Of a DNA stretch of 64,000 bases, positions 48,055-57,697 are shown piece after piece. Source of the stretch: Escherichia coli (GTDB lineage Bacteria; Pseudomonadota; Gammaproteobacteria; Enterobacterales; Enterobacteriaceae). A model generated the notes under the pieces. That model saw only the letters and a list, made by a program, of their open reading frames with translations, was not told the DNA's origin and ran no database searches. The stretch's first letter is position 1, and each line of letters starts with the position of its first letter. The stretch is taken from NCBI RefSeq assembly GCF_003334815.1, contig NZ_QOWO01000001.1; one strand, written 5' to 3'. Position numbers and translations under genes: made by a program.

Positions 48055-48351
48055 ATGTTCGAACAACGCGTAAATTCTGACGTACTGACCGTTTCTACCG
48101 TTAACTCTCAGGATCAGGTAACCCAAAAACCCCTGCGTGACTCGGTTAAACAGGCACTGAAGAACTATTTTGCTCAACTGAATGGTCAGGATGTGAATGA
48201 CCTCTATGAGCTGGTACTGGCTGAAGTAGAACAGCCCCTGTTGGACATGGTGATGCAATACACCCGTGGTAACCAGACCCGTGCTGCGCTGATGATGGGC
48301 ATCAACCGTGGTACGCTGCGTAAAAAATTGAAAAAATACGGCATGAACTAA
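48055..48351 (+). CDS. fis: Nucleoid-associated global regulator Fis
   Basis: 98-aa [34 protein letters not shown]...KKYGMN. The last 5 codons and stop lie inside the attL repeat. Confidence 0.99.
48335..48351. repeat. attL core: 17-bp direct repeat AATACGGCATGAACTAA
   Basis: Identical 17-mer at 57681-57697. A degenerate third copy (ACGGCATGAA) lies at 48364-48373. Confidence 0.85.
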
Positions 48352-48376
48352 AGTCAAGCTGTAACGGCATGAAATT

Positions 48377-48406
48377 AAAGGGGCTATTTCAGCCCCTTTA
48401 CTTTTT
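48377..48406. terminator. Element-borne hairpin terminator that now follows fis (plus strand) and the tape-measure gene (minus strand)
   Basis: AAAGGGGCtatttcaGCCCCTTT followed by ACTTTTT on the plus strand. It lies 26 nt after the fis stop and 23 nt beyond the tape-measure stop. Confidence 0.75.
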
Positions 48407-48428
48407 GTTGCAACCGTACTGACAACCC

Positions 48429-50702
48429 TTATGGTGTTTGCGCGCCATCTATCATCATGCTTCGCTGCCTTACTGCTTGTTGCTGTCGTAGTTGCTGTAT
48501 CACCTTCCGGGCTAATGCATCTTCATTCATACCAGGTTCTGCCTTCACGCTGATGTGGTACTGGTCGTTGCTATGCACCGTAGTGCCACCAGAGCGGTTG
48601 GCCAGTGCAGGTGACGGCAGGGCAGCACCAGAGGCAGTGGTTGCTGCTGGCTGCTGTACATCGTCGCGGAATGGTGCGGTAAAGAAATCTTTGGTTTTCT
48701 GCCACGCACCACCAGCAACATCAGACACGGCGTTTTTAAACTCCAGTGCCTTGTTGGTCAGGTTGCCAATGTTGTCAGAAACCCAAATGATCTTATCAAT
48801 CAGGAACGTGATCGGTGCGGTCACAAGCTCGATGCCAGCCGCCAGGGTCTTACCGAACGTCATCCCCATTTTACCGGCCTTATCCAGTTCCTCGCCGCTG
48901 TATTTGACCGGTTCGGTCAGTGACGTGAACCAGTTGAAAGCCGTCTTAACCGCAGCGCCCACGCCATCAATGACGGGCTTCAATGGCCCCATGCGCTCAT
49001 ACAGGCGATGCAGGGCATCGCTAAGCGGTTCCAGCCCGGATTTGATACCTTCACCCACGCCACCAAAAAAAGCCTTCACACCAGCCCAATGGCGGTAAAT
49101 CTGATAACCTGCCAGCGCCAGGCCAGCTACGGCAGCACCAACGCCAGTGGAAATGAACGCCGCACCGATGGCGCGCACGCCGGTAGCCACCGCAGGCAGG
49201 CCACGAGTGCTGGCCAGAACGGCGGATGCGTTCATGCGGGCAAACAGGCTGGACACGTTCAGCAATCCGCCTTTCAGGAACGTGAACGCAAAGCCAGCGG
49301 CGAACGTCGCCACACGCAGTGCCACCAGTGCACTGGAACCAATAACCACTGCTTTGGTCACGGTAGGGTATTCGCGCGCCAGTTCGGCAACCTTGCCGAT
49401 AACCGGGCCAACGGTAGCCAGAACGCCGTTGAATGCTGGCAGCAGCACTGTGCCGATCGTGACGCCCAGGTTAGACACACGGTTGTTGAAAATCTTAAGC
49501 TGCGCCGACGTTTTGGCGGTGGCTGCCTCATATTCAGCCTGCATAGAACCGGCATATTTGGTCTTGTCTTTGACCATATCCAGATTCTTTTGGTACGTAT
49601 CAAGCTGTGTCAGCATTGGTGCGATAGCGCCAATCGATTCCTTACCAAACAGTTGCGAAAGCGTTGCCGCCTGCATGTGTTTTGGCAGCTTGCTGATCTT
49701 GGACAGGATGACGCGGATTGTTTCATCGGCGTTCAGTTGCATTGATTTTGCAACCTGCTTGGATGTGAAGCCAAGCTGTTTAAACGCTTCACGCTGTGAC
49801 TTCGTGGCGGATGCGCCAGCGGTCAGGGATAGCAGCAGGTTTTTAATACCGGTGGCCGCAATCTCATTCTGCACGCCCATACCGCGCAGCGTTGCACCCA
49901 TCGCAGCGATAGAACCGGAAGCTGCACCAGCGACGCTGCCAAGTGGCCCGATGCGCTGCGTGATTTCCAGGATGTCTTTGGCTGATGCGGCGGTGTTGTT
50001 GCCCAGGTAGTTGATCTTGTCGGCCAGAACGTTCATCTGGTCCTGCGTCATCCCGAAGGCGGCGCGCATCTCTGCCATTGCCTGGCCTGCCTGGTCGGCG
50101 CTGACGTCAAAAGCCACACCCATTTTGATGGCCGATTCAGCAAACTTGGTTAGTTCGCTGGTGGCGATGCCTGATTGAGCACCAGCGGCAACAATCTTGC
50201 CGATTTCGTTGGCTGCCATCGGCATTTTGGTTGACATATCCTGGATAGCCTGGCCCATCTTAACCAGGCCGTCAGGGGTTTCGAAGTTGGCAACCTTGCG
50301 GATATCTGCCAGCGTATCTTCAAAATCCATAGCCTGTTTGATCGGTACAGCTACCGTTGCGCCAAGTGCGACAGTCCCCAGGATTCCTTCTTTGTAGCCT
50401 TGACGCTTCGCCAGGTTGCGTTCGCGGGCATCCTCCACGCGTTTCAGGCGTTCGGTGGCAGAACGAAGGCGTTCAACCTGCCCGACAACCGTTTGATAGC
50501 GGTCCTTCATGCGGGAGAATATCGCGCTATCCTGGCCATAACGCTTCATTGCTTCATTTAACTGGCGCTGTTCGCGCGACAGCTTAGAGATTGCGCTACC
50601 AATCTCGACGGTATTTTTCTTTACAGTTCCAAATGCACCACGAAGGCTGCCGGAAACGGCCCCACCAATCGTGATTGTTGCATTTAACTTCTTGTTGGCC
50701 AT
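48429..50702 (-). CDS. Phage tail tape-measure protein (TP901-family core-like)
   Basis: 757 aa. It has an N-terminal coiled coil and a region resembling the TMP core (DIRKVANFETPDG...IGKIVAAGAQSG...). It also has central Gly/Ala-rich hydrophobic segments and an overall Ala/Gly/Thr-rich helical composition typical of TMPs. Confidence 0.8.
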   Translation of the reverse strand: MANKKLNATITIGGAVSGSLRGAFGTVKKNTVEIGSAISKLSREQRQLNEAMKRYGQDSAIFSRMKDRYQTVVGQVERLRSATERLKRVEDARERNLAKRQGYKEGILGTVALGATVAVPIKQAMDFEDTLADIRKVANFETPDGLVKMGQAIQDMSTKMPMAANEIGKIVAAGAQSGIATSELTKFAESAIKMGVAFDVSADQAGQAMAEMRAAFGMTQDQMNVLADKINYLGNNTAASAKDILEITQRIGPLGSVAGAASGSIAAMGATLRGMGVQNEIAATGIKNLLLSLTAGASATKSQREAFKQLGFTSKQVAKSMQLNADETIRVILSKISKLPKHMQAATLSQLFGKESIGAIAPMLTQLDTYQKNLDMVKDKTKYAGSMQAEYEAATAKTSAQLKIFNNRVSNLGVTIGTVLLPAFNGVLATVGPVIGKVAELAREYPTVTKAVVIGSSALVALRVATFAAGFAFTFLKGGLLNVSSLFARMNASAVLASTRGLPAVATGVRAIGAAFISTGVGAAVAGLALAGYQIYRHWAGVKAFFGGVGEGIKSGLEPLSDALHRLYERMGPLKPVIDGVGAAVKTAFNWFTSLTEPVKYSGEELDKAGKMGMTFGKTLAAGIELVTAPITFLIDKIIWVSDNIGNLTNKALEFKNAVSDVAGGAWQKTKDFFTAPFRDDVQQPAATTASGAALPSPALANRSGGTTVHSNDQYHISVKAEPGMNEDALARKVIQQLRQQQAVRQRSMMIDGAQTP

Positions 50703-56174: not shown

Positions 56175-56277
56175 ACTACATGACAATAATACTCAAATTG
56201 TATCAGCAGTAAATACCCTTTAAATTCATAAACTTAACTGCAAATAACGCTACATAACTCTATATAATCATCAATTT

Positions 56278-57513
56278 TTAATTATCTGATTTTAAAAGGT
56301 TTATTTTTTCTAAATATTTTATCCATTTGTCCAAGGCTAACCGTTTTTCCGGGATGTACTGGCTACGGTTGTACACCGCCATCACTCCTGGCATTGAGTG
56401 GCCCAGCAACTGTTCAACCACATGCGGGGCTATCCCCAAGTTATTTAGACTGGTGGCAAAAGTGCGGCGCAGGTCATGCAACGTCCACGGCGTTGAATGC
56501 TCTAATCGTCTGTATAAGATACGCCCCCACTGGCTGACAGCTTCGGGTTTCTTCATTTCACCAAGCAGCATTCCGCTATCAAGATGATTTTGGCGTAGCT
56601 GTAAAATAAATGGCTGTATAGATTCAGGCACGGGTCTGATGATTTTCTCCCCACCCTTGCTATGTTCTCGCGGAACTGTCCAAATCCATTCTTTCACGTT
56701 CCATTCCGACCATGTCGAAAGACGAATTTCTTGTGTTCTTGCACCAAACACTATTAGCAATTTTAAAAGCGCGGTGTAGTAAGGTAGAAACGCATATTCG
56801 CTTTTTAGCGCATTCCAAAGGCCACTAAGTTCTTCAGAAGTTAAAACACGATCACGTTTTGCCTGCTTTCTTCCAACATCAGTAACTTTGATATCCTCCA
56901 GCGCATCACTGTAAACATCGTGCAGCCTGCGGTTGTGAATCAACGCCTGCTTGCAGTTACCTAATATGTAGCCGCTTGCTACCGGCGCGACTTTTTTGAT
57001 TCTGCTAAATGTCTCCATCCATCTTGCTTTAGAGCACTGTTCAAGTGGCAATTCGCCGATGAAAGGATAAATATGTCTTTCGAATTGGCGTCTATGCCTT
57101 TCAAAGTTGACCCGGTTTTCCGCCGCGTACTCATTAATCCAGCGTTCCAATGCTTCCCTGATAGTGACAGGTTTCATGGTTTTTGCTGACTCTTGGTCAA
57201 ACTGGTCTTTAGGATCTAGATTATGAGCAAGCCACCGTTTGCATTGGTCGCGTTTCACCCTCGCCTCAGCAAGAGATAAGGCAGGATACTTGCCCAGCAC
57301 TAGCGTCAAAGTATTGGCGCTTTTATGCTTATTCTTATAACGGAACAACCATTGGATGTTATTGGCCGGTCTCTTCTCGCCATCAAGGATTTTGCGCCTT
57401 GATGGTGTAACGCGAACAGAAAGGCTGCCACCGTCAGCAACATCAAAAGGTTTTTCGATGACTTTGCGGGTTAACGCACGCAATTGAACATCTGAGAGTT
57501 TATTTTCGGCCAT
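56278..57513 (-). CDS. int: Tyrosine recombinase, P4/CP4-57-type integrase
   Basis: ATG at 57513 (MAENKLSDVQLRALTRK..KPFDVADGGSLSVRVTP, a DUF4102-like arm-binding N-terminus). Catalytic-like GARTQEIR, HDLRRT, LLGH and Y in AVYNRSQY. The TTG extension in the ORF track is rejected. Confidence 0.9.
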   Translation of the reverse strand: MAENKLSDVQLRALTRKVIEKPFDVADGGSLSVRVTPSRRKILDGEKRPANNIQWLFRYKNKHKSANTLTLVLGKYPALSLAEARVKRDQCKRWLAHNLDPKDQFDQESAKTMKPVTIREALERWINEYAAENRVNFERHRRQFERHIYPFIGELPLEQCSKARWMETFSRIKKVAPVASGYILGNCKQALIHNRRLHDVYSDALEDIKVTDVGRKQAKRDRVLTSEELSGLWNALKSEYAFLPYYTALLKLLIVFGARTQEIRLSTWSEWNVKEWIWTVPREHSKGGEKIIRPVPESIQPFILQLRQNHLDSGMLLGEMKKPEAVSQWGRILYRRLEHSTPWTLHDLRRTFATSLNNLGIAPHVVEQLLGHSMPGVMAVYNRSQYIPEKRLALDKWIKYLEKINLLKSDN

Positions 57514-57680
57514 AGAGTTAATGACAACCTTTTTGACAACTGTATGCAGGGAGTAACTGATAACTGATGATACAATGCGAGCCAATAAAAAATAAATATC
57601 TCTTTCCGCATCAATTATTTATGATGAATACAAATTATCTAGAGTGATAATAAATTACGTATAATGACTCTGTATTTTAC

Positions 57681-57697
57681 AATACGGCATGAACTAA
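57681..57697. repeat. attR core: second copy of AATACGGCATGAACTAA
   Basis: Exact match to 48335-48351. It lies 168 bp beyond the integrase start and is followed by the apparent native fis terminator. Confidence 0.85.

Follow-up and report, generated by a model that had tools for sequence, protein, structure and literature searches.

A probable phage satellite of the published fis island group in Escherichia coli that carries its own mosaic tape measure gene

Introduction

The 3′ end of fis is a heavily used integration site of phage satellites. Tommasini, Mageeney and Williams (2023, NAR Genom Bioinform, PMC10111431) mapped 2642 + 923 = 3565 islands in fis, identified as phage-inducible chromosomal islands (PICIs), with the consensus identity block TACGGCATGAACTAA at the fis terminus. 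For one of them, Kpn47.16.fis of Klebsiella, experimental excision within the identity block and subsequent replication after mitomycin C are cited in that paper. Its supplementary list includes Eco5354.9.fis (CP022393.1/989847-999192) of E. coli E62, with the identity block aatacggcatgaactaa, and dozens more Eco entries ending in.9.fis or.10.fis with the 17-mer AATACGGCATGAACTAA. The identity blocks of the published 15-kb fis PICIs reach through the fis terminator (PMC10111431). The present work concerns an element of 9.35 kb at positions 48335-57697 of a 64,000-nucleotide stretch of Escherichia coli DNA (RefSeq assembly GCF_003334815.1, contig NZ_QOWO01000001.1), hereafter the window. With a probability of roughly 80%, this element is a PICI-type phage satellite of the fis group, resident in its chromosomal attachment site. 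Its less ordinary feature is that, as a minimal E. coli satellite, it has its own, heavily reshuffled gene for a tail tape measure protein (TMP).

Satellite-encoded TMPs were called unprecedented when they were shown, in 2025-2026, for the Vibrio PICI-like elements (PLEs). A PLE brings its own TMP along with a chaperone and a hub (Mathur, Boyd et al., Nature 2026, PMC12987554). The PLE TMP replaces that of phage ICP1 in virions, and its deletion lowers transduction by 96-99.9%; in PLE11 a small protein blocks the helper TMP (PMC12987554). Putative tmp genes are shown there only in PLE-like elements and in capsid-forming PICIs (cf-PICIs), and a December 2025 preprint describes satellites as otherwise devoid of TMPs (PMC12822802). 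Among the papers that could be searched, none was found to mention a TMP in E. coli PICIs that are not capsid-forming.

Results

Insertion at the end of fis

The features that define the insertion are as follows.

48055-48351, plus strand: fis, intact open reading frame (ORF) of 98 aa, last five codons and stop from the attL copy of the repeat
48335-48351, no strand: attL core AATACGGCATGAACTAA, which is also the published identity block of the fis PICIs of E. coli
48364-48373, plus strand: partial third copy of the core, ACGGCATGAA (inner 10 bases), inside the element, 26 bp start-to-start from the attL copy
48376-48400, plus strand: element-borne hairpin and T-run between the converging fis and TMP genes, standing in for the native fis terminator
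57681-57697, no strand: attR core AATACGGCATGAACTAA, exact repeat
57727-57758, plus strand: native fis terminator, hairpin GGCGCT...AGCGCC and T6, now 9.3 kb away from fis

The 17-mer AATACGGCATGAACTAA occurs in exactly two copies in the window, at 48335-48351 and 57681-57697. No further copy with up to two mismatches was found in the window, and two matches were reached in 0 of 100 shuffles. The repeat cannot be extended beyond 17 bp, the preceding base being A versus C and the following base A versus T. The left copy corresponds to the final fis codons (KYGMN) and the stop, where the intact ORF ends. The right copy is followed by the hairpin-T6 terminator and then by yhdJ, the ATG of which is at 57783, 85 bp past the repeat. 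The initial annotation, made from the window alone, had described this arrangement correctly and had taken the right flank for the original 3′ flank of fis. The latter was borne out when the fis end was joined in silico to the right flank and the product searched for in 5426 complete E. coli genomes. The fis-yhdJ junction is contiguous in 5309 of them, in some at 100% identity, and in these empty sites the native terminator directly continues the fis stop.

DNA of the element interior was found in 72 of the 5426 genomes, with a coverage of at least 80% in 47. The core is present as a single copy in empty sites and as two copies in occupied sites. All relatives with inspected flanks lie between fis and yhdJ with the same repeat and have a unit length of 9345-9750 bp. 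Strains E62, SZQ1 and UPEC85 are among the bearers of the element, and bearers came from humans, pigs, poultry, cattle, a rat, a dog and a rabbit farm as well as from river water and sludge. The GC content of the element (50.4%) and of the rest of the window (50.6%) gives no compositional signal. At the level of sequence, these junctions show recombination by a tyrosine integrase between a AATACGGCATGAACTAA-bearing attP and an identical attB at the fis end, which rebuilds the last five codons and the stop and supplies a new terminator. Judged from the same genomes, the element is a polymorphic insertion, empty and occupied sites coexisting in E. coli. Site-specific integration regenerating the fis 3′ end had been proposed at the outset, together with two findings that would speak against it, namely element-free genomes without a single 17-mer at the fis stop and an insert present throughout as an ancestral part of the locus. 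As the insertion is polymorphic and empty sites have a single core copy, the opposite was found on both points.

The 10-mer ACGGCATGAA occurs three times in the window, versus 0.21 expected. Its third copy is kept in the inspected relatives with a 94-100% identical integrase and is absent in relative L002, the integrase of which is 56% identical. The copy at 48364-48373 may be a core-type site of the integrase.

About 117 genomes lack a contiguous fis-yhdJ junction, versus only 72 with element DNA. Other occupants of the site exist, including some with integrases ~77% identical over a short stretch (H96-H100).

Integration and replication genes, and agreement with the fis PICI group

The half of the element next to attR contains the following features.

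56278-57513, minus strand: tyrosine integrase, 411 aa from the ATG, pointing inward from attR (PHROG 1, 5e-53)
55804-55983, minus strand: AlpA-family excisionase/regulator, 59 aa (Pfam PF05930, 3.5e-13)
55514-55795, minus strand: 93-aa protein, no family match, 99-100% conserved in integrated relatives
53842-55530, minus strand: VapE/D5-type replicative helicase, 562 aa (Pfam PF05272, 4.5e-48; PHROG 2249, 1e-82)
53608-53832, minus strand: 74-aa protein just downstream of the helicase gene, from the ORF list and the comparison of relatives
53236-53538, no strand: origin-like region in which an AT-rich inverted repeat (53371-53435) lies between 10 copies of GGTGTCAT, present in both orientations

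The integrase has Arm-DNA-bind_3 and Phage_integrase domains, as seen on identical gene calls, and the ATG chosen by the gene caller lies 167 nt inside attR, in line with the early placement of an integrase just inside the right repeat. A single gene orientation had also been claimed, and all credible genes of the element are indeed on the minus strand. The iteron GGTGTCAT is found 15 times in the window, versus 1.9 expected, and 10 of the 15 copies are inside the origin-like region of ~300 bp. In RefSeq relatives, the only plus-strand ORF (109 aa, 53276-53605) is called a hypothetical protein. All of it falls within the iteron/AT-rich origin region, its repeated MTP peptides mirror the iterons, and it is probably not a gene. 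In the 74-aa protein, the motif ...FATEQEAVDHARNRLP resembles by eye the 'b3' segment of the Bro network (...TEREAR..LP) in supplementary file 4 of PMC10111431.

The element agrees with the published fis PICIs in its attachment site at the fis 3′ end, with attL and attR sharing the block TACGGCATGAACTAA, and in its integration zone, where an inward tyrosine integrase at one end is followed by AlpA. The replication zone, which in the group has a protein of the primase, DUF5906 or VapE type and an origin beside it, is here composed of a VapE-type protein, without a detected primase domain, and an adjacent iteron origin, and the late zone contains a few phage late genes, here those for a capsid homologue and the TMP. 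The copy in E. coli E62 (Eco5354.9.fis; H7/H46) is 99.2% identical to the element and has the same 17-mer. There are two differences. A Bro-network gene was not recognised in the element, which has in that zone, located between those for integration and replication, only the 93-aa ORF without a family match; the Bro-network zone is described as variable among fis PICIs (PMC10111431), and its absence here is therefore compatible with membership. Further, the term 'tape measure' is not in the main text of PMC10111431, whereas the element carries a TMP.

Thus, the element, its site and its repeat are already catalogued. The initial annotation is correct in its observation and in its mechanism and contains no novelty as first stated. 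It had regarded the protein-coding target and the very small size as unusual, and this did not hold, since islands in fis number 3565, many E. coli entries of the published list measure ~9-10 kb, and both properties are normal for the group.

The tape measure gene

The gene next to attL encodes the TMP.

48429-50702, minus strand: tail TMP, 757 aa, full length (Pfam PF10145, 3.5e-39; PHROG 28, 2.7e-129; TIGR01760, 5e-71)

Over its whole length, this TMP shares 58-60% identity with its counterparts in phages ECOO78, PT1, HeidiAbel_Bas97, ECO1230-10 and ep3. The TMP alleles of the relatives all have their best match in the same phage clade, at 43-60% identity, and all are intact, with 757-763 aa and a ratio of nonsynonymous to synonymous substitution rates (dN/dS) of 0.2-0.5. 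By these measures, the TMP lineages are old and maintained, not recent debris.

In relatives L021 and L022, the integrase, AlpA, 93-aa, VapE and 74-aa proteins are 100% identical to those of the element, but the TMPs are only 63% identical. Conversely, the integrase and VapE of L002 are 56% and 46% identical, yet its TMP is 97% identical, and that of the plasmid relative L019 is 95% identical. Comparison of 48429-50702 of the window with L013, L021, L001 and L018 revealed that breakpoints fall within the gene. For alignment columns ~100-450 there are two or more types with 20-46% identity, and for columns ~550-700 two or more further types that are combined differently with the former. Even the E62 copy, with integrase and capsid genes identical to those of the element, is only 33-56% identical in TMP columns 551-700. 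On the evidence of these alignments, the TMP gene is a mosaic cassette that has been swapped among elements identical in other respects and with integrase-less plasmid relatives of ~9 kb. The pattern of mosaic, often-swapped alleles suggests a specificity determinant in conflict with a helper phage or with a barrier to the entry of DNA or the assembly of tails.

The capsid homologue and small proteins

The remaining late genes lie between the origin-like region and the TMP gene.

51957-52841, minus strand: HK97-fold major-capsid-protein homologue, 294 aa, assigned by fold search of an AlphaFold2 model
51640-51954, minus strand: 104-aa protein, sole match sub-threshold (P22_Cro, E = 0.008)
51472-51636, minus strand: 54-aa protein, no family match, ribbon-helix-helix-like pattern by eye only
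50940-51257, minus strand: 105-aa protein, predicted helical hairpin and conserved basic C-terminal helix GERAKRQAVKRGA
50724-50930, minus strand: 68-aa protein, conserved in the family and encoded immediately upstream of the TMP

The capsid gene was listed as an ORF of 322 aa that begins too early, the homologues having 294 aa. Some homologues are fused to a prohead protease domain (PF04586), and one source names a homologue major capsid protein. By sequence, no family match was obtained, single-sequence and profile searches of the PDB gave chance-level matches only, and in an hhalign comparison with the Bas97 head protein the probability was 12%, confined to the C-terminus. The HK97 assignment came from the fold search. 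The AlphaFold2 model, with a predicted local distance difference test score (pLDDT) of 77.8, gave 211 Foldseek matches in the PDB at E ≤ 0.001, and the best 50 of the 211 are HK97-type capsid or encapsulin shells, including the procapsids of P4 (7jw1) and SaPIbov5 (7rwz).

Homologues of the 105-aa protein are restricted to this element family. Its model (pLDDT 81.9) shows a generic helical hairpin, for which the fold search brought up nothing significant, and a role as scaffold, chaperone or inhibitor is only a guess. For the 68-aa protein, Pfam, PHROGs, NCBIfam and PADLOC gave no match. The element has no recognisable gene for a portal, terminase, protease, tube, sheath, baseplate or lysis function and is therefore unable to make particles alone. 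Positions 48000-58000 matched no Rfam family at E ≤ 0.1, and thus no P4-type CI/C4 RNA.

An additional gene of 159 aa, absent from the element, is found in some relatives of both the integrated and the plasmid form (L002, 8343-8822; L019, 8255-8734; L020, 6519-6998). It is named a small terminase in RefSeq, has a weak Pfam match to AbiEi_4, and accompanies a divergent version of the 54-aa gene.

The two virion proteins might also be read as weapons. The element would then be chiefly an anti-phage island, with the TMP and capsid homologues serving as poison subunits against the assembly of an infecting myovirus and with transfer secondary or absent. Helper interference is common among satellites, interference with tail assembly has been described for PICIs and PLE11 (PMC11364771; PMC12987554), and the rapid exchange of TMP alleles fits an arms race. 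Nevertheless, such an island is improbable: a PADLOC scan of the element proteins gave no matches to defence families, a TMP conserved at full length, combined with integrase, replication module and origin, indicates an element that propagates itself, and known satellites can both interfere with a helper and be transferred.

Relatives of the element

The late module, from the capsid homologue to the TMP, is also found on integrase-less circular molecules of 8.9-9.3 kb, which carry a primase-helicase with PriCT_2/Toprim and VapE or DUF5906. Contigs of equal length are circularly permuted between independent samples, and complete plasmid records exist in E. coli, Salmonella and Proteus. These relatives comprise L001 (pM121-3, NZ_CP083588.1), L004-L009, L018-L020 and the PLSDB matches H156-H160, besides one record of 17.4 kb. 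Small circular contigs with the capsid homologue were considered as excised copies of the element and rejected, being these integrase-less plasmid relatives. As far as the records go, the family has two lifestyles, integrated and plasmid, as satellite P4 does.

The same molecules are an argument for reading the element as the integrated form of a small autonomous plasmid, transferred by a route other than phage particles, with the capsid and TMP homologues in a non-virion role. PLSDB rates the five complete plasmid records as non-mobilizable. Neither the integrated nor the plasmid form, however, has a relaxase, an origin of transfer (oriT) or conjugation genes, and the conserved cargo is exactly two virion proteins and their small partners. 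Since P4 likewise switches between plasmid and integrated states, and since one relative is embedded in a prophage of the helper type, such an origin is very unlikely.

The embedded relative, L024 (Salmonella, Logan ERR11194586_5, ~4700-13800), lies in the protease-capsid head gene of a Bas97-type prophage, whose large terminase subunit (TerL) is 78%, portal 66% and head protein 66-76% identical to those of Bas97. The embedded satellite has a 463-aa protease-capsid fusion, the capsid domain of which is 50% identical to that of the element, and a helicase with an N-terminus 68% identical to that of the element's VapE. It also encodes a 521-aa protein with an N-terminus weakly like the Bas97 TMP.

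Damaged copies were met as well: L010 (AP025754.1) has an IS66-family insertion in the origin region, between the 74-aa and capsid genes, VapE is shortened to 447 aa in L011 and L014, and H95 (NZ_JALDNN010000001.1) retains only a remnant of ~1.9 kb. These copies, and the lack of a direct sign of a circular form, would suit an immobile prophage remnant with a fossil integrase and repeats and decaying structural genes, but that account was rejected on gene content and is hardly credible, as the integrase, AlpA, helicase with origin and few late genes are those of a PICI and not of a deleted prophage, the att repeats are perfect, the compact gene order and intact ORFs recur in hosts from many sources and countries, the integrase, VapE, capsid homologue and TMP are under purifying selection, and the late module also occurs on the circular 9-kb plasmids of three genera.

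Candidate helper phage

Similarity of the element DNA to phage records is confined to the TMP and VapE genes. Residues 159-556 of VapE match, at 65% identity, the C-terminal part of a primase-helicase of HeidiAbel_Bas97 that is named 'DNA primase'. HeidiAbel_Bas97, ECOO78, ECO1230-10, ep3 and PT1 represent a type of temperate myovirus of ~41 kb with a lambda-like head and a P2-like tail module. Because of the identities of 58-60% for the TMP and 65% for VapE, and because a related satellite (L024) sits inside the head gene of such a prophage, a myovirus of this type is most likely the helper, as judged from sequence comparison.

Discussion

The gene set of the element and the experimental record of another fis PICI lead us to infer that it can be excised, replicated and packaged. 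Upon helper infection or induction, AlpA and the integrase would excise the element, and VapE would replicate it from the iterons. The genome of ~9.3 kb would then be packaged in capsids built from, or modified by, the capsid homologue of the element, and the filled capsids would be joined to contractile tails of the helper. In those tails the satellite TMP would replace the helper TMP of ~785 aa, giving chimeric tails as in Vibrio PLEs. Excision would be expected to produce the circle junction TTTACAATACGGCATGAACTAAAGTCAAGC and the restored chromosomal junction fis-TTCAGGTTAGC.

A PICI in the functional sense of Penades and Christie is induced by a helper phage to excise, replicate and enter infectious particles at high frequency, and it redirects packaging by means of terS, a cos site or Rpp. 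Several observations weigh against this reading of the element. A primase domain was not recognised in VapE with Pfam or PHROGs, and no terS gene, cos or pac signal was identified in this copy. Unlike in PLEs, no homologue of a tail assembly chaperone or baseplate hub was recognised beside the TMP gene. The small ORFs of the element had no Pfam match to a tail chaperone at E ≤ 10, and the 105-aa protein aligned with gpE of Bas97, the helper-type chaperone, at 1% probability in hhalign; for comparison, the Bas97 gene upstream of its TMP gene matches Phage_TAC_7 at 9e-18. No sequenced phage has a TMP more than 60% identical to that of the element. A low-stringency search with the TMP gene found a co-resident gene similar over more than ~20% of its length in 0 of the 5426 complete E. 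coli genomes; it gave only short matches (up to ~20% of the gene) to unrelated prophage TMPs, with no second copy in the satellite hosts. It follows that common resident prophages do not include the helper, and presumably the element has to wait until a phage comes in from outside. Finally, exact searches for the attP junction gave no match in IMG/VR, in JGI metagenome contigs or in a set with one genome per species, a weak negative in view of the few E. coli isolates in these sets.

Within the interpretation as a PICI-type satellite, the parts that concern the tail are less secure than membership in the fis group. The chance that the satellite TMP enters chimeric tails, by analogy with the PLE precedent, may be put slightly short of even. 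More tentative again is the proposal that the family is a second, independent lineage of chimeric-tail satellites after the Vibrio PLEs, enterobacterial and resident at fis or on plasmids of ~9 kb, in which the swapped TMP cassette would decide which Bas97-type myovirus is exploited or which block to entry or tail assembly is evaded.

The element would offer an E. coli system for the question of the satellite TMP, with the cultured candidate helpers HeidiAbel_Bas97, ECOO78 and ep3. The natural swaps of TMP alleles could be used to map what the TMP recognises.

Comparison with known satellites

Like the element, cf-PICIs carry capsid genes, and some have putative tmp genes (PMC12987554, Extended Data Fig. 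10). They possess, however, a complete head and packaging module with portal, protease, terminase and connectors, whereas only the capsid-protein homologue is recognisable in the element; assignment to the cf-PICIs was therefore rejected.

Ccm of SaPIbov5 and other PICI capsid homologues are, like the element's protein, HK97-fold capsid homologues that come without the rest of the head module, and the fold search with the element's protein also matched 7rwz, a SaPIbov5 procapsid containing Ccm. The proteins differ in having no detectable sequence similarity, and formation or resizing of a capsid by the element's homologue is only putative. With the helper-embedded PICIs (HE-PICIs), the link is the relative L024 in the head gene of a Bas97-type prophage, which shares the helicase N-terminus and the capsid domain with the element. 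HE-PICIs interrupt their target gene, in contrast to the element, which sits in a chromosomal housekeeping gene and restores it.

Satellite P4, the helper of which is P2, alternates between plasmid and integrated states and encodes neither a capsid protein nor a TMP. The element resembles it in being enterobacterial, in its roughly similar small size, in a putative helper with a contractile tail of the P2 type and in belonging to a family that exists both integrated and as a plasmid. It differs in having no matches to Sid, Psu, Delta or the alpha primase in Pfam, PHROGs or NCBIfam, and classification as a P4-like satellite was rejected for this reason.

The Vibrio cholerae PLEs differ from the element in their helper, which is a lytic phage, and in encoding a chaperone and a hub, neither of which was recognised in the element. 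The PLE TMP is ~20% identical to that of ICP1, whereas the TMP of the element is ~59% identical to that of the candidate helper. Chimeric tails were demonstrated experimentally in PLE and are proposed for the element. What the two have in common is the plan of a small integrative satellite that brings its own TMP but is without genes for the tube, the sheath and most of the baseplate.

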